Shown here piece by piece: positions 54,001 through 63,000 of a stretch of DNA of 64,000 nucleotides (positions are counted from its first letter, which is position 1; the number at the start of each line of letters is the position of its first letter). Source of the stretch: Candidatus Cloacimonadales bacterium. GTDB taxonomy: Bacteria; Cloacimonadota; Cloacimonadia; Cloacimonadales; JAFGVF01. Location of the stretch: assembly GCA_963677495.2 (NCBI GenBank), contig CAXXOU010000004.1, positions 1,441,726 through 1,505,725 on the forward strand. The letters run 5' to 3'. Position numbers: made by a program.

Positions 54001-57000
54001 CAGAACCACAACAAGACTCAGAGAGTTCATTAATAGAGCGCTCATTAGATGACTACATGAAGGTGTTATAAGATGATAGAGATAACTAAAACATACATCA
54101 AAAGGGCTCGTTGTACTCATATTTTGAATACTCTTGAAAGTGCAGTTTTAGAAGCAGAGAAACAGAATATGACTTATCTGGAGTTCGTACATTATCTATT
54201 TGAAAAAGAGAACTCAGGAAGGAATCAAACCAATATCAACAGAAGACTTAAACAGGCTCACATCCCGGTAATAAAGACCTTTGATGAGTTCGACTATGCT
54301 TATCAACAAGTAATAACCAAAAGACAAGTAAAGGAGTGGAAGAACTTTGTCTGGCTGGAGCAGAGGAGGAATATAATTTTAATGGGACCTCCGGGAGTAG
54401 GTAAGTCTCATGTTGCAACAGCACTCAGTTATGAAGCAATAAAGGCAGGCTATAAGGTGGTGTTTTATAATCTGAACAACCTTATCGAAGAACTTGTACT
54501 AGCTGAAGCAGATAACAACATAGATAAATATCTAAGCAATATAGCCAAGAATGATCTGATAGTTATAGATGAGATGGGGTATCTTCCTCTCCAGACAAAG
54601 GCAGCTAATCTGTTCTTTAGACTCATCCATCTCTTATACGAATTTAGATCAGTAATCATAACATCGAATAGGTTGTTTAATGAATGGGGAGCTATTTTTA
54701 ACGACAATGTGATAGCAACTGCTATTCTTGATAGATTACTCCATCACTCACAACCAATTACAATGCTCGGAGATAGCTTTAGACTAAGGAATTTTCAAAA
54801 ATGAAGACTGTACCATTTTTAAATGCCAAACTGTACCAATTTAAAATGCCATTGACATTCACCATTTGCAAGGTTTACAACCATTCCAAAGGTGAGATTG
54901 TGTGTTCTACCTTTCGAATGGTCCCTAGACCTTCGAAATGGTGCTCTTGTTATACCTTACTCGAGAAAGGGAGCCTTCAAACGATGGGTGTTATTCCCCT
55001 CTCATAGAGGGGTGGCGACTTGTCGTCGGGGTGTTTCTTCCTTCGGGATTCACCATTTGCAAGGTTTACAACCATTCCAAAGGTGAGATTGTGTGTTCTA
55101 CCTTTCGAATGTACTGTAGCACCGTCAACCCATATTTAAACTTTTTCTATAAATTCCCATGTTCATAACATCATGGATAACTTTCTTAACTTACCCACAT
55201 TCCACACCACGACTATTAGAGCTTTGGTGAGGAGCTCTATTAGCCGTGGATTGTGGATAAGTTATCTATCGAACGCAAGTTATCCACAATACTATGAACA
55301 ATTTATGTTACTGGTTCTGTTTCTTTGCAACGCATAATATGGTGTCCATTCTCTATCATACTTAACAATAGCAAATAGCTGACGCAAAAGCTTGTTAGCT
55401 GTAGCTACTATTGCCTGTTTGTGAGTCTTCTTCTCACTCTTTAGATGGTTGTAATATTGCACAAACTCTTCATTATGCTTTCTCGCACTATTAGCAGCCA
55501 TGTAAAGCATCCGTCTAATTGCAGGACTCCCTTTCTTACTTATTGATCCTCGACCATTCAAGCTAGTCCCGGATTGCCGTGGATTCGGGTTCAGACCTGC
55601 AAATGATACTACTTTCTTTGCATTATCAAACTTACTGAAATCATCATAATAAGCGATAGCTGTAGCAATTGTTAGAGTACCTACACCAGGAATAACTATG
55701 AGCTTTTTATAGATCTTAGTATATCTACTCTTCAAAAACTTCTCTATAGCTTTTTCTAGTGTTTTTGTAGTTTTCTTAATAGATTCAAGCATGTAAGCGT
55801 TAGATTCTTGAACAACTTCGGATACTTGCATTCCTAACTTATATGCATGAATTTGGTTAGTTAGTTCTGTTTTCACTTTAATAAATCTACTATAACTTCT
55901 GAGAAGTTCTATTAGCTCTAACCTGTCGTCTGATGGTGGCTCATAGATGCCACATTCATAGTTGTATCCAAATCTCGCGATAATCTTAGCATCAGCTTTA
56001 TCTGTCTTAACTCTGCTCATTGTTAAATTAGCAAAGGTCTTAATAATAAAAGGATTAACTACATGAATTATATGTTTTTGATTATGTGCTTCCATAGCAA
56101 TCTTGGTATGATATGCACCTGTAGCTTCCATGTAAATATGAACAGAACCGGGAGTAAATGGTTTCAAGAACTCATTAAACTTCTTAGGATCGTTATCAAT
56201 TATAGAATGTTCATGTCTATGTCCATCATATACGCTCACATCCAACTTATCCTTTGATACATCCAATCCAATTACTCTCTTTTTCATAATTTACTCCTTT
56301 ACAAATATTATAAGAATAAGTAATCTACCATTGCAAAATACGGGCTTCAATGCCCAATGTACTGTACAGACTAAGCGGAAGGTGGGCTTAACATTCGAAA
56401 CGAGTTTAATGACTCAATGGTCTTATAGCTTATTCACCTTCCCTTATTCTTAATGTCTGTTTATTTCTCTTATTTTATTTGGTGTCAACTATACAATGGT
56501 CCCTAGACCTTCGAAATGGTGCTCTTGTTATTCCTTACTCGTGTAAGGGAGCCTTCAAACGATGGGTGTTTTCTCCGAATTGCACCATTTGCAAGGTCTC
56601 GCAAACTCAACCATTCCAAAGGTACGATCTCATTCCACAATCCAATGCGTCAGGTCATCATACCGTGGAATCATTGGTAGCAACTCATGTTCGATTGCTT
56701 CTTTAACTGTCCTTACCGGTAATCCGGTATCTACAACTACTTGTGGGGTCACTGTTAACAAATCAACGGGATAGCCATCTTTCTTAAGTTTAAACATCAT
56801 CTTTCGTAACAATGCCGAATAACTCGGTGGTCTGCATTTGTGTCGGTAACTTAGTTTGTACCTGTCTGTGTAATCTTTCAAATCATTAATATACTCCGGA
56901 TTGAGAAGTTCTTTGTAAACTGCGAGTTGTTTGGAAACGCTACCCATGTAGTGGTTATGTTCTGTTAACTCTGGCATCACGAACTCTCGTACCCACATGA

Positions 57001-60000: not shown

Positions 60001-63000
60001 CAATAACGATTTTAAATTTTAAAGAAGAACCTTATCCTGTAAAGTCTACCCATCAAGCTAAAAATTTTGATAATATTTCACACTTTCTACTTAGCTTTAT
60101 TGGTCTTACGCAGAAGAAGATAAAATTTAAAGCAAACAAAACACAAAATTTTACTTTTCGTAGAATAGCTCCCTTAACTATGGTTTCTGAAGAAGACATT
60201 ATTAAGGACACTTCTCCATTTTTATCTGGACAGTTTACTTCTGTAACACCTGAGAAACATGCACTTAAACTACTACTGACAAATGATGATGACTCTTCAA
60301 TTAGAGACTTCGATGATATTAAAATTATTAATGCAAATACTAATGGCAAGAAGGAGTTATTGAATCTGCTAATTGAGACTCAGCTGCAAAGTTTTAAGCA
60401 GTTGAAAATCAATTTAAATCTAGAAGAAATGGAAGATGAACTTAAAGCATTAGAAGCTAAATCCCAAGAAGCATCTAGCTTGAGCAATTCTTTAACACAA
60501 ATGGCTAATGAAAAAGAGTGTAAAAGGAATGCCGTTCTTAATGAACTTAGAATACAGAATACACGTGTTAGTATATTAGAAGAGTTGAAGACAAAATTTT
60601 CATTACTAGAAGAACAATACAAATCTGATATCAATCGACTCAAAGCAATTAATGAAACCACTAATCTACTAAGCAGTATTGAAGTAAATCACTGCCCAAC
60701 TTGTGGAGCTGAAAGGGATCATTTTGAGAAGGAAAATGCAAAATACGATTTCAATCCAGATGAAATGTCAATTTCTTGCAAAGCCGAGAAAAATAAGATT
60801 ACGTTGCTACTAAATGACCTTAAATTAGCTATAAAAGATATTGATTCAGAGTATAAGAACTTAATAGAAAACAGAATGAGAACAAAAGAAGAACTTAGTT
60901 TAATTGAGGAAGAACTTACGGTGTTCTACAAAACTAAAATTGAAGATATCTTGAACGACTTAGAAGTTATTAAAGATAGAATCATTGTGCTAAACAAAGG
61001 AGTTTCCTTTTTACAAAGAATAAATGAACTAGATGAGCAACTTAGGGTAATACCAGACGGTATTAAAATATCAAAACAAAGTAATTCAGATCAAATTATA
61101 GCACCAAATAAGATGAAAGAGCTGTGTGAAATGATAGAAGAGTTAATAAAACTATGGCAGTGCCCAGACATGAATAGTGTCATATTTAACTATAAATCAT
61201 TTGATATAGTCATATCTGGAGCAGAAAGAGCTAGTCATGGGAAAGGAGTTAGGGCTATTATGCATTCTGCAGTCACACTAGGATTGTTAAAGTATTGTAT
61301 TGCTAATAATTTATCACATCCTGGATTTGTAATCCTTGATTCTCCACTTCTAGTATATCAGGAGTCTAAAAGAGACAATAATGAAAAAAATTATAGTGAT
61401 AATGTGAAATGTTGCTTTTATAATGACTTAGCTAAAAACTATAAGGATCAGCAAATAGTAATTATTGAAAATGAAGTGCCACCAGAGTTTATTATCAATG
61501 ATTCTTCAGTTAATATAATCAAGTTTACAGAACCTATATATGATGGATTTATCCCATTTAATGAAAAAAAATAAAAAACTTTACCATTTTGTGAGTAAAA
61601 CGGGCATTTTGTGAGCAAGGGGAAGTGAAACGAGGTTTCACAGCTAATAGCTTATAGCCTAAAGCCTATAGTTAAATGCAAATCATAATTACTAACATCA
61701 GATGAAATCCGTATCAGTGATACATTACTGAACCCTCACCAGTCTTCGCGTAAAGCTACGCCCTGACTGGCCTTAATCCTCTCCCCGAAGGGGCGAGGAG
61801 ATTGATGTTGAATACCTAACTGCAGAAGGGTAAATACACAAAAGGGTCGCGTAGGAGAGTTGATCACTCCTAGACGATAATGGTAATCCAAAATGGAAGT
61901 GTTCATGATGGAACCCTTCGAAGCCTTCTCAGGAGTGATGGGTAAACTCGTTTACTCAGCATTCAATGAAGGACACATCTGCTTCAGCAGAGAGTATGTA
62001 ATCCCAACTCCTACTGATAACACAGCAAAAATGGGAGATGTTGGAGAAAACTTAGCCATAGTATATGATAGTTTTGATAGTGGCTGGGTTTCAGATCTCC
62101 AAAAGTACACAAAACGTTATGCAAAAGACTGTCAAACTCGTTACCAAAGACACCCGGGCTTCTATGCCATGTATGGTAAGATGTGGTGGAAGGTAGTTAA
62201 AGATGATCCCACAATTGACTTGAGAACAGTAACATTCGCAGATATTCAACTCCTTGATATTGGAATCCAAACAGTTAAAGATGCCATTAATAATGGCTTC
62301 CTTCCTAAGATCAAGAAATTCGATGACTTAACCAATACCTATAATGGAGCGTAGGTAAAAAAGGCCCTCGGGAGAGGGCTTTTTTTAGCTAATAGCTTAT
62401 AGCCTAAAGCCTATAGCTGAATGCGTTTCAGATGCAAAATGCAAAATGCAAAATGCTGAATGCTAAATGCAAGATGAAAAATGCAGGATGCTAACCACGA
62501 AAGGCACTAAAAGCACGAAAGGGGATCTTATTATTTTCGTGTCTTTCGTGTGGTTCGTGGTTAAAAAAACTGTTACTGTAGCGTGAAGTTATCCACTATG
62601 AGTCCAACTCGTAAACTCGCTATGACTCCAATGGAGAGATAGGGGGAAAGTTCGACCCCGTTGGGGTCGTGGTTTTTTGGGTGGTTGTTGATCCCACGCT
62701 TGCGCATGGGGCTATTCAGGTTCAGCTAACTCCGTAGCTGATATCTATAAGAGATAGATGAAAGATGCTGAATGCTAAATGCTAAATGCTAAATGCTTAA
62801 TTATAAATGCAAGATGCAAGATGCAGAATGAATAATGCAAAATGCAAAATGCAAGATGCAGAATGACAAATACAATGCAAATGCAGGATGTAGGATTGGA
62901 GCTTCTTTGAAAACAAACAAATATATGATTGACAATGTTGTTAGGTAATTGATGCTTTCGTTATGCAAGAGATTATAAAAGACTTTTTAAAGTACTTACG

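Follow-up and report, generated by a model that had tools for sequence, protein, structure and literature searches.

The window analyzed here, a stretch of 64,000 nucleotides from a Candidatus Cloacimonadales genome, contains a Lamassu operon enclosed by two outward-facing genes that encode homologous proteins. As an initial annotation had read such pairs as docking brackets of swappable defence cassettes, the question raised by this locus is what these genes do at the borders of the DNA that they enclose. Our best reading is that they encode a family of small cytoplasmic proteins, with two subtypes, and that the genes of this family border hotspots of chromosomal plasticity in the Cloacimonadales.

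Whole-genome searches with phmmer and an iterated profile found exactly 22 intact family ORFs, the number initially annotated; these ORFs encode 143 to 195 aa as called and approx. 150 aa when counted from the conserved start. The family boundary is sharp, with the next best ORF reaching only E 0.024, and tblastn found three family fragments beyond the intact copies. Median pairwise identity is 33.6%, close to the 35% stated before, and the family alignment contains 6 invariant and 7 nearly invariant columns; the left and right bracket proteins of the Lamassu pair share 36% identity over 148 aa (E 4e-31). As initially reported, no known family was found, i.e., the two bracket proteins of the Lamassu pair matched no Pfam family at E <= 0.1, and the 5 of the 22 members searched against NCBIfam matched nothing near the cut-off. 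PADLOC, a comparison with viral structures and a profile search against the PDB also gave no match for the family protein. An AlphaFold2 model based on an alignment of 121 sequences was of high confidence (pLDDT 94.8, pTM 0.83), and Foldseek found no PDB match at E <= 0.001 (best 1.6), which agrees with the earlier description of a confident model without structural relatives. On the other hand, the proposed Cox-type excisionase helix-turn-helix received no structural support: phrog_575 matched 2 of the 22 members at E of about 1e-3 (best 8.9e-4, residues about 115-141), the best structural match of the whole model had Z 3.8 with no helix-turn-helix structure matched, and the C-terminal 58 residues folded alone matched one chain at Z 2.2, which is not a DNA-binding protein, and again no helix-turn-helix.

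Phylogenetic analysis yielded two clades, named A and B (support 96/81 and 89/56), and both include members from other genera; judging from the tree, A and B are two old subtypes. Across genomes, a profile of clade A separated 20 A-type genes (at least 161 bits) from all others (at most 134 bits). The A-type genes represent a recent expansion in the tree, each located beside a different, older B lineage. In this genus the two subtypes differ in charge, B proteins being basic with a median pI of 9.1 and A-type proteins acidic (pI 4.4-5.7), while A-type proteins of other genera are basic.

All five outward-facing (minus/plus) pairs with a spacing below 10 kb that had been described were confirmed; among 100,000 draws of 22 random genes, in which such pairs were counted, the mean was 0.29 and the maximum 4, so that five were never reached. 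Every one of the five pairs consists of one A and one B gene (P = 0.013, post hoc). A sixth pair has collapsed: all that is left of B is a minus-strand fragment, 390 nt upstream of an A gene, and the cargo has been lost as well, while A was kept. The seventh A gene (C4:992928) has a 59-nt upstream element 88% identical to that of a B gene 78 kb away. Twelve family genes are single, several of them among housekeeping genes, just as the initial annotation had cautioned, and ten B genes have no A partner. Five of the six A genes of the three complete relatives are accompanied by B, as a copy or a fragment no more than 15 kb away, and so is one A gene in genome G025; beyond the genome studied here, A-B linkage recurs in three genomes, which belong to two further families of the order. 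In 12/12 linked cases, which are mutually related and not independent, B is located 5' of A. In genome G014, B and A form a tandem in this order with a gap of 30 nt, next to a primase-polymerase/DUF3987 module. The two clades, the one-of-each composition of pairs with B 5' of A, and the location at synteny breaks among IS elements and repeats (see below) are new here.

Features of the window that relate to the family (positions are those of the window)
Feature	Position	Strand	Basis or remark
Single B-type gene (6030-6482) with its own upstream element	5936..6482	+	
Second pair, B-type left bracket	23973..24425	-	Family search, alignment, tree
Upstream element of second-pair B gene, TATAGTAGTAGAGG box	24727..24788	-	nhmmer E 5.3e-6
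Second-pair cargo: three genes with no family assigned, type IX secretion substrate of 1127 aa	25448..31741	+	
Upstream element of second-pair A gene	32162..32219	+	nhmmer E 9.7e-4
Second pair, A-type right bracket	32524..33003	+	Conserved start 32542; family search, alignment, tree
IS110, IS21 (istA/istB) and IS110 insertions	51155..56287		Pfam
Lamassu pair, B-type left bracket	56630..57130	-	Clade B in tree; conserved start Met at 57085
Leader/spacer of REP-like hairpin repeats	57131..57647		Copies 57198-57244, 57478-57527; sequence read directly
Inverted repeat (110 nt), left arm	57648..57757		86% identical, inverted, to 61573-61682
Heptamer tandem array (GCATTCA/TGCATTT)	57798..57865		Tandem Repeats Finder
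Dispersed repeat copy (~150 nt, 11-nt phased words)	57875..58030		Conserved left cargo junction
lmuA	58171..59232	+	PADLOC LmuA 1.1e-115; Pfam CTD6 2.8e-38, Mrr_cat 6e-5
lmuC (ABC-3C middle component 2)	59225..59722	+	PADLOC LmuC 3.1e-50; Pfam MC2 2.7e-47
lmuB (SMC-like ATPase)	59670..61574	+	PADLOC LmuB 6.4e-147
Inverted repeat, right arm = conserved right junction	61573..61682		Abuts lmuB stop codon
Lamassu pair, A-type right bracket	61893..62354	+	Clade A in tree
GC-rich hairpin with T-runs directly after right bracket	62364..62379		Sequence

The Lamassu assignment of the enclosed genes was borne out by all three components (see table), with LmuA combining an Mrr-type nuclease N-terminus and ABC-3C CTD6. 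The left bracket protein (pI 7.9) is 93% identical to its orthologue in the genome of a sister species; of the right bracket gene (protein pI 5.65), no more than ~25 codons at its start is left there, together with 82 nt of its leader (95% identity). The REP-like hairpin copies of the left leader also occur in the sister locus. The left arm, in which a small hairpin accompanies two direct repeats (reverse complement of ATTTTGTGAG), is in part conserved in the sister genome (88% over 66 nt); the right arm is 85% identical to the sister locus, whose different cargo ends 67 nt away, and 91% identical to C4:707751-707850. Arrays that resemble the heptamers are also found downstream of the right bracket, where the hairpin is likely a two-way terminator. 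The IS insertions separate the left bracket from its conserved downstream neighbor (50040-50642), the counterpart of which is only about 400 nt from the bracket in the sister genome.

The two genes of a pair have a common, pair-specific upstream element, composed of direct repeats and a TATA..TAGAGG box and absent from the rest of the genome, which is a new finding. Within pairs, inverted arms of 110, 64, 49 and 36 nt are 86, 94, 84 and 89% identical, respectively, despite only about 30% identity between the paired proteins; in the second pair, the elements listed in the table are the two arms of the 64-nt repeat. The arms of the Lamassu pair are 85-88% identical in the sister species, similar to coding DNA (88%), while other spacer DNA is unalignable. 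The pattern TATANTNNTAGAGG occurs 12 times genome-wide, and the 6 copies that are intergenic all precede family genes and share their orientation. An nhmmer profile of the element matched family leaders exclusively and detected it at 9 of the 22 family genes; a strict definition (exact 7-mer direct repeat and box) found it at 6/22 family genes as compared to 8/2836 others. Before the single B gene at 6030-6482, TTTGCGAGAG occurs twice and the box TATATAGTAGAGG follows, at 35 nt from the ATG; the sister orthologue has retained the box, the leader and the ribosome-binding site. In genomes G014 and G026 the architecture is the same but the repeat words differ. An appearance of pair specificity could also arise if spacers have dispersed repeats in common. 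Because paired genes share these elements, it is plausible that the family protein controls its own locus.

The enclosed genes are not defence genes in every pair. Three of the five pairs contain recognizable defence genes, and one contains unknown genes and a weak PIN match (E 2.4e-5). The remaining one, the second pair of the window, encloses a secreted-protein cluster in which Por_Secre_tail was the sole Pfam match and PADLOC found nothing, i.e., there is no recognizable defence; the sister genome carries homologues of its first two genes, arranged as a tandem array. The low GC of the surroundings was confirmed, with a median of 0.346 for the 3 kb upstream of family genes as compared to 0.372 for other genes (P = 4.5e-5; Mann-Whitney test) and values below 0.33 for 9/22 family genes as compared to 3% of all genes. 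Likewise, the two orthologous pairs of the sister species kept their bracket genes (75-93% aa identity) and had the enclosed genes fully replaced, consistent with the unrelated contents initially described; in the counterpart of the Lamassu pair, an unrelated gene, which is a candidate for defence, takes the place of the operon. Family genes are associated with defence islands in other genera as well, in a biased sample of loci chosen for clustered copies. Most DNA methylase loci, on the other hand, are away from family genes: such loci account for 8 methylase-family matches, all of them more than 15 kb from any family gene.

The genomic context of family genes differs between the sister species, and 12 of 15 intervals beside them contain synteny breaks as compared to 9/77 elsewhere in the same windows (P = 2.6e-7); with orthologues of at least 75% identity only, the count was 4/7 (P = 0.0098). 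Spacers upstream of family genes measure 306-1812 nt (genome median 37), and IS110, IS21, IS200-type and DDE transposase genes occur nearby, with no integrase or transposase as constant neighbor. At the left side of the Lamassu cargo, the junctions of two independent replacements differ by 36 nt, inside or after the dispersed repeat, of which about 40 BLAST copies exist genome-wide (70-93% identity): homology with the sister locus stops at 58054 and homology with a second site (C4:705014-705277) at 58090. At the right side, three different cargoes end at 61566-61573, a few bases from the inner edge of the repeat arm. Both junction sequences recur at the second site (C4:705014-708018), around another low-GC cargo and with no family gene. 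As the left junction is not fixed and falls in a dispersed repeat, its variation appears to fit flank or repeat homology better than site-specific docking.

We tentatively favor the hypothesis, which may well be correct but falls short of probable, that co-regulated A and B genes border recombination-prone hotspots, that cargo turns over by flank homology and that the proteins are likely self-regulating nucleic-acid binders. The ancestral unit would be a B-then-A couple, still tandem in one genus, and the DNA between B and A, 5' of A, would have become a site where foreign, low-GC genes accumulate, often anti-phage systems and also surface-protein genes and IS elements. Cargo would be replaced most likely by homologous or repeat-mediated recombination, a route that we infer from two species only; family genes, conserved leader DNA and the dispersed repeats that fill the spacers would supply the homology, DNA taken up from relatives would supply the incoming cargo, and the family protein would not be the recombinase. 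Each gene would have a promoter-like box that is specific to the family, with direct repeats of its own ahead of the box, and since A and B of a pair have the same element, the proteins would most likely be sequence-specific nucleic-acid binders that regulate their own pair; they may also insulate or tune the DNA between them. The basic charge of the B proteins counts in favor of this hypothesis. The missing helix-turn-helix and PDB profile matches and the acidic A proteins of this genus argue against DNA binding, and the limited occurrence of the element (6 or 9 of the 22 genes) and the twelve single genes also weigh against the hypothesis.

It seems unlikely, if deserving of serious consideration, that the genes are passive flanks, i.e., dispensable and monocistronic, each with a promoter and a terminator of its own, that their long repeat-rich spacers tolerate insertions, so that IS elements, dispersed repeats and islands gather there, and that the function of the protein is unrelated to the islands. 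The long spacers full of genome-wide repeats, the adjoining IS elements of four kinds, the second site with the same junctions and no family gene, the methylase matches away from the family and the cargo that is sometimes not defence are all consistent with this explanation; it would, however, leave unexplained why every pair has an A and a B gene with B 5' of A, here and in two further families of the order, and why anciently diverged paired genes have the same upstream element under apparent constraint. An active docking module, in which A and B bind the border inverted repeats, join the borders and promote capture, inversion or exchange of cassettes, would represent a new recombination platform without a classical integrase. 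Of this initially proposed reading, the excess of pairs over chance and the swapping of cargo stand; the pair-specific inverted repeats on both sides of the cargo, the nearly constant right junction, the recent A expansion beside older B lineages, and the invariant Tyr72 and nearly invariant Arg33 also point to it. Varying left junctions, the lack of a constant integrase, the weak Cox-like hint and the fact that neither fold nor motif of a recombinase, nuclease or HUH enzyme was detected in the family protein nevertheless make it improbable. The sole nearby tyrosine recombinase (62963-63880) is missing from the other pairs and has one genomic homologue (37% identity), with which it looks like a housekeeping Xer pair.

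That B and A are the conserved terminal genes of an integrative element or satellite that has since decayed, with the cargo in its internal hotspot, is more doubtful again. Hotspots within a conserved scaffold typify ICEs and phage satellites, family genes differ in context between the sister species, and the G014 tandem adjoins the primase-polymerase/DUF3987 module; yet the five pairs contain no integrase, replication or packaging genes, the paralogues are old (median identity about 34%), one orthologous pair changed context at one outer flank only, and two pattern scans of limited reach found no relatives in viral contigs. The least probable explanation is an addiction-like couple, in which basic B and acidic A form a toxin-antitoxin or exclusion pair that retains the enclosed DNA. 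The opposite charges in this genus, the small, multi-copy, diverged and island-associated genes and the 30-nt gap of the G014 tandem would suit such a couple, but A and B are homologues of one fold that matched no toxin or antitoxin families, ten B genes have no A, A-type proteins are basic in other genera, paired genes are divergent and not co-transcribed, and the collapsed pair kept A after losing B and cargo.

Among known systems, integrons exchange adjacent promoterless or self-contained cassettes, rich in adaptive and defence genes, beside a fixed platform. The exchange of cargo is similar here, but there is no IntI-type integrase and no attC-like site per gene, whole multi-gene operons are replaced, and left junctions are not fixed. 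In hotspot 5 of SXT ICEs and in the hotspots of P2/P4 prophages and satellites, a lasting scaffold contributes two conserved genes between which defence genes are exchanged, as the cargo is here between two retained genes; the present pairs, however, lack element functions, and their brackets are chromosomal and old. The phage P2 C/Cox switch and Cox-like excisionases (phrog_575) also involve small, divergently transcribed proteins, whereas here the two proteins are homologous to each other, kilobases of cargo lie between their promoters, and the model of the family protein matched neither a helix-turn-helix nor an excisionase fold. The core defence hotspots cDHS1 and cDHS2 of P. aeruginosa, as presented by Johnson et al. 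(2023, PMC10250203), hold variable, lower-GC, defence-rich DNA between conserved marker genes, are not obviously part of one mobile-element class, and are proposed to be transferred via recombination in the conserved flanks. The low-GC, often defence-bearing variable DNA between conserved flank genes is alike, but the flanks described there are unrelated single-copy core genes at two loci, whereas here five or six loci in a single genome are each flanked by paralogues from the same family, always an A and a B, that have inverted upstream elements in common. Finally, the spacers resemble REP/BIME clusters with RAYT transposases in their mosaic make-up, with hairpin repeats, phased 11-nt arrays and runs of heptamers, and IS200/Y1-type genes lie beside two family genes; those repeats, however, are genome-wide and not tied to the family, whereas the repeat-plus-box element occurs only before family genes.

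The two genes that bracket the Lamassu operon of the window (see table below) face outward, are 36% identical to each other and belong to a family that phmmer and an iterated profile delimited to exactly 22 ORFs in the genome under study (3.41 Mb in four contigs, C1 to C4, with 37% GC; the window is the terminal 64 kb of C4). The next ORF reached only E 0.024, tblastn added three further family fragments, and the median pairwise identity within the family is 33.6%. The initial annotation had described a 22-copy family without a Pfam or NCBIfam match, and our searches agree: Pfam gave 0 families for the two window bracket proteins at E ≤ 0.1, and NCBIfam gave nothing near its cut-off for the 5 of the 22 members tested. 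PADLOC had no fitting model for any of the 22 members (one weak match, E 0.0032), and for 37 of 150 listed relatives no Pfam family lay above the cut-off (E ≤ 0.01). An exhaustive profile search returned 366 cluster representatives at E ≤ 0.001, the closest protein-atlas clusters being hypothetical proteins of Cloacimonadota; a single-protein scan of genome contigs gave 3 loci, and two pattern scans of limited reach found no family relatives in viral contigs. Full-text literature searches gave nothing on the family, an absence that does not prove the family unpublished.

The bracket gene is real, and its product has a confidently predicted fold without a known relative. In the AlphaFold2 model (121 sequences; pLDDT 94.8, pTM 0.83), five helices follow a three-stranded sheet. 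Foldseek gave 0 matches in the PDB at E ≤ 0.001 (best E 1.6) and recognised nothing among viral models (best E 0.75); likewise, nothing was recognised by VIA-align of the whole model, whose highest Z among 48,161 chains was 3.8 (to two-helix pieces), or by a sequence-profile search of the PDB (best E 0.087). The C-terminus had initially been said to look like a Cox-type excisionase helix-turn-helix. The weak match behind this proposal was recovered in 2 of the 22 members (phrog_575, Cox-like excisionase, E down to 8.9e-4), while structural support was found neither with the whole model nor with a separate fold of the last 58 aa (pLDDT 77), which yielded one chain at Z ≥ 2, a mitoribosomal protein (best Z 2.2); for so small a domain a non-match is not proof. 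A separate lead to DUF6266, from an atlas cluster in which 11% of the members carry this domain (score 0.84), was dropped, as PF19781 had 0 matches in the whole genome at E ≤ 10.

Among the 41 genomes searched (the genome under study and 40 relatives), 28 carry the family, often in multiple copies, with 13 matches in the sister species and 12, 9, 17, 14 and 25 in the relatives G013, G014, G021, G025 and G027, respectively; some families of the order had no copy in these genomes. About 10 ORFs of G021 are longer (188-238 aa) and align with the family profile over its first ~117 positions only, and all 25 copies of G027 are a divergent form of ~185-200 aa; these longer forms may represent fused or extended architectures. 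Genes were called with a longest-ORF caller; in relatives, two family genes escaped it, overlapping spurious ORFs having been chosen instead.

Five minus/plus pairs of family genes, with members 4.4-8.1 kb apart, occur in the genome. In 100,000 random draws of 22 genes the mean number of such pairs was 0.29 and five were never reached, so that the five outward-facing pairs reported initially exceed random expectation. The cargo of the window pair, preceded by 1 kb of non-coding DNA, is a Lamassu system of the ABC-3C type, as LmuA (effector; PADLOC E 1.1e-115), LmuC (middle component; 3.1e-50) and LmuB (SMC-like ATPase; 6.4e-147) form a single operon, in which Pfam finds CTD6, MC2 and Mrr_cat. 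From the contents of the five pairs, the earlier term "defence cassette" suits three; it does not fit the pair with a weak PIN match or the pair enclosing a secreted protein. Type IX secretion tails are frequent among the proteins of this genome (Pfam scan of family-gene neighbourhoods). In the sister species, the first two genes of the second window pair's cargo (window 25448-27252) have homologues that are arrayed in tandem five times, as genes of ~93 aa and ~337 aa without a known family, upstream of a family gene (L023:32-7799).

Positions of family pairs and of associated features (window coordinates unless a contig is named)
Feature	Position	Strand	Content or context	Inverted arms
Window pair (B, A)	56630-57130; 61893-62354	-; +	Lamassu	110 nt, 86%
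Second window pair (B, A)	23973-24425; 32524-33003	-; +	three unknowns and a 1127-aa secreted protein, GC 0.34-0.37	64 nt, 94%
C1 pair	C1	-; +	type II methylase, LmuB-like ATPase, two unknowns	36 nt, 89%
C3 pair	C3	-; +	cytosine methylase, GHKL ATPase, one unknown	49 nt, 84%
C4 pair	C4:777579; C4:782536	-; +	four unknowns, GC 0.27-0.29, one with weak PIN match
Arms of window pair	57648-57757; 61573-61682		inverted repeat around the cargo
Lamassu operon	58171-61574	+	three overlapping genes, GC 0.30-0.33
Tyrosine recombinase	62963-63880		adjoins right bracket; contig end 120 nt further
IS110-IS21-IS110	51155-56287		two identical 331-aa IS110 transposases around IS21 (istA/istB); between left bracket and conserved neighbour 50040-50642
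Further IS21 copy	7339-9604
Tandem arrays	6523-6970; 9597-10211; 10965-11486		190-nt unit with embedded 64-nt hairpin-repeat unit
Second cargo site	C4:705014-708018		four different low-GC genes (249, 222, 116, 155 aa)

Cargo GC is 0.27-0.33 compared to 0.37 for the genome, and the 3 kb upstream of the 22 family genes have a median GC of 0.346 vs 0.372 for other genes (P = 4.5e-5), with upstream GC < 0.33 in 9 of the 22 vs 3% of all genes; downstream GC did not differ from that of other genes. Single family genes with low-GC genes upstream are C1:522547 (methyltransferase and type IV-like helicase-nuclease) and C4:692506 (two unknowns), and the remaining single genes have housekeeping surroundings. 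Family pairs are one class of hotspot among others. Searched for in the genome, three DNA-methylase families matched 10 times: two matches fall in the methylase of the C1 pair and one in that of the C3 pair, and the other 7 are at family-free loci, none of them within 15 kb of a family gene.

A maximum-likelihood tree of 45 members separated clade A (7 genes of the genome under study) from clade B (15 genes). As each clade includes members from other genera, the A/B split is old. All five pairs consist of one A and one B gene (chance 0.013, calculated post hoc). The sixth A gene (C4:1041429) belongs to a collapsed pair: 390 nt upstream of it, on the opposite strand, a B gene survives as its last 33 codons; the seventh (C4:992928) has an upstream element that matches that of a B gene 78 kb distant (88% over 59 nt), a pattern as an inversion would leave. 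A profile of clade A scored 20 A-type genes at ≥ 161 bits and all others at ≤ 134 bits. In three complete relatives, a B gene or fragment lies ≤ 15 kb from five of the six A genes, and the sixth has one at 17 kb with housekeeping genes intervening; G025 has one further linked case, and G014 a B-then-A tandem with a gap of 30 nt. A and B genes of G013 and G025 lie on one strand, B first, with a type I restriction system and toxin-antitoxin pair, Hma and PDC-S19, or a type I/IIG restriction cluster as content. Overall, B is 5' of A with variable DNA between them in 12 of 12 linked cases, which are mutually related and include non-sister loci picked for their clustered copies; the defence association beyond the genome under study and its sister species likewise comes from 11 loci picked because copies cluster. 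The G014 locus (L031:6494-19583) holds the only unsplit B-then-A tandem, with a primase-polymerase/DUF3987 module on one side and a type III-A CRISPR-Cas operon on the other.

The two clades differ in charge within the studied genus, where the pI is 4.4-5.7 for A proteins (acidic) and has a median of 9.1 for B proteins (basic); other genera have basic A proteins. The C-terminal third is near-identical among the seven A proteins. The corresponding DNA is ~80% identical, with synonymous differences, which speaks for constraint at the protein level and against gene conversion. Prediction of an A-B complex (score 0.00) gave no verdict and weighs neither way on binding.

Comparison with the sister species confirmed cargo replacement between kept flanks at two sites, as the initial annotation had claimed for orthologous pairs with unrelated cargo. 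At the window pair, the orthologue of the left bracket (93% aa identity) has two genes ahead of it, one of 175 aa and a ParA-type/PDC-M28-like one of 952 aa, both without a homologue in the genome under study, and only the first ~25 codons of the right bracket are present; homology between the two genomes ends at 58054 and starts again at 61571. At the C1 pair (brackets 91% and 75% aa identity), the sister species holds PDC-S06 and an HD-CE/HATPase protein in place of the methylase set, the junctions being situated ~105 nt before the A gene and ~70-90 nt away from the final cargo gene. The pairs are thus hotspots of the cDHS type, in which the same flanks hold different, lower-GC, defence-rich content in a related genome; a study of Pseudomonas core defence hotspots (PMC10250203) likewise describes variable content between conserved flanks.

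Spacers around the family genes are repeat mosaics and REARRANGEMENT points. Leaders and trailers contain heptamer arrays, REP-like hairpins, 190-nt tandem units and a ~150-nt element (11-nt phased words, about 40 copies). At the window pair, the left junction of the cargo is inside or just past one such element. The second cargo site on C4, where a family gene is absent on both sides, resembles the window pair at its left junction (96% over 264 nt, to window 58090) and right arm (91% over 100 nt). The junctions at 58054 and 58090 place the left ends of two independent replacements 36 nt apart, and three different cargoes end at 61566-61573, a few bases from the inner edge of the right arm. 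IS110, IS21, IS200-type and DDE transposase genes adjoin family genes in the genome under study, its sister species, G013 and G027, with further IS21 copies near three other family genes besides that in the window. Over nine 20-kb segments of the sister species, gene adjacency with the genome under study was broken beside family genes in 12 of 15 intervals as compared to 9 of 77 others (P = 2.6e-7); for family genes with an orthologue of ≥ 75% identity, breaks numbered 4 of 7 (P = 0.0098).

Upstream spacers of all 22 family genes measure 306-1812 nt, compared to a genome median of 37. Many leaders contain two direct repeats ~20 nt apart and then a box TATA(G/A)T..TAGAGG. Of the 12 genomic occurrences of the pattern TATANTNNTAGAGG, 6 are intergenic, and these all precede family genes in the same orientation. 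With a profile made from nine element instances, no match was obtained in the genome outside those family leaders. An exact 7-mer repeat (17-24 nt apart) with the box was found for 6 of 22 family genes vs 8 of 2836 others. The repeat word varies by gene (TTTTCAC, TTTGCGAGAG, AAACCAGAG, ATTTTGTGAG), and both genes of a pair have a common word, in arms that flank the cargo as an inverted repeat. The arms of the window pair are found in the sister species at 85-88% identity, a coding-like level, in a spacer that is otherwise unalignable, and leaders in G014 and G026 have a like architecture with different repeat words. The single gene 6030-6482 has its box 35 nt ahead of the ATG, and box, leader and ribosome-binding site are kept in the orthologue. 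Judging from these sequence patterns, we read the element as a putative family-specific promoter with gene-specific operators, which, as the simplest guess, may be bound by the family's own proteins.

None of the mobile-element or toxin-antitoxin classes considered describes the pairs. The IntI-type recombinase and attC sites of an integron were not found, and no repeated site bounds single genes. Pfam searches of the neighbours of all 22 genes placed a tyrosine recombinase at the window pair only; this protein, with an N-terminal SAM-like domain, has a sole homologue in the genome (C4:104432, 37% identity), and as there is only one, the two resemble a housekeeping XerC/XerD pair. A 305-aa gene (C4:708349) considered as another paralogue of the window's recombinase was rejected because BLASTP finds only C4:104432. 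No pair contains a transposase; moreover, the brackets, ~30-36% identical to each other, are not IS copies, and the inverted repeats persist when the cargo changes, so that neither a transposon with terminal inverted repeats nor a composite transposon describes the pairs. Nor did Pfam, NCBIfam or PADLOC detect a toxin or antitoxin family among the bracket proteins, and the divergent transcription of paired genes and the ten B genes without an A gene speak against a type II toxin-antitoxin system.

These data firmly indicate that an old B/A couple with its private cis element marks sites where foreign DNA gathers and is exchanged. Exchange would likely proceed by recombination via the conserved borders and repeats, given that borders and arms persist through cargo change, left junctions are unfixed, no recombinase accompanies the pairs and the genome has competence genes (ComEC). 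Purely passive family genes would explain part of the data, namely the repeats, the IS elements and the family-free site on C4, and would leave the A/B rule and the constrained common elements unexplained. At the other extreme, the A/B couple could be an active platform that recognises the pair-specific inverted repeats at both borders and either promotes capture and exchange of defence operons or senses a signal and coordinates cassette expression; the cargo ends beside the right arm and the invariance of Tyr72 across the family favor such a role, which we nevertheless regard as improbable; the family protein has no catalytic signature. Were it true, the couple would represent an integrase-free, integron-like docking and control module with a new fold, found across an uncultured order. 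Our best guess is that the marker couple encodes putative sequence-specific nucleic-acid-binding autoregulators, a role suggested by the gene-specific repeats that paired genes have in common and by B proteins being basic.

Hotspots of defence genes between conserved flanking genes have been described before. What is unusual here is that many hotspots of one genome are marked by one paralogue family, always with one member from each of two ancient subtypes, and that these genes have their own family-specific upstream element. A functional link would provide both a protein fold and a cis element that are new to the biology of genome plasticity; even with a passive link, the family is a practical marker of variable islands in Cloacimonadales genomes and metagenomes. 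A search between or upstream of family genes points to such islands directly. Several of the islands in this study contain genes of no known family (e.g., L010:8329-11814 and window 25448-28333) and may thus encode candidate new systems of defence or surface variation, in bacteria not yet cultivable.

Rfam and tRNA scans of the window gave no match, the GC-rich leaders match no known RNA, and 14 A-type leaders had no common RNA structure. Three A-type leaders (window 32480-32541, L005 upstream of 7377 and L022 upstream of 7668) end in TGACCAGGAGGTCTAA(A/G)ATG, with the Shine-Dalgarno sequence within a GACC...GGTC hairpin that may serve translational control. A palindromic TTATCCACA...TGTGGATAA present in three leaders was rejected as a family element, since only 3 of its 20 genome copies are near family genes. 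This TTATCCACA(N3)TGTGGATAA palindrome, whose half-site we take to be the DnaA-box consensus, ends a dispersed element (e.g., C2:34352, C3:25015, C4:693264), and many copies are preceded by GTGACCCTCTC twice.
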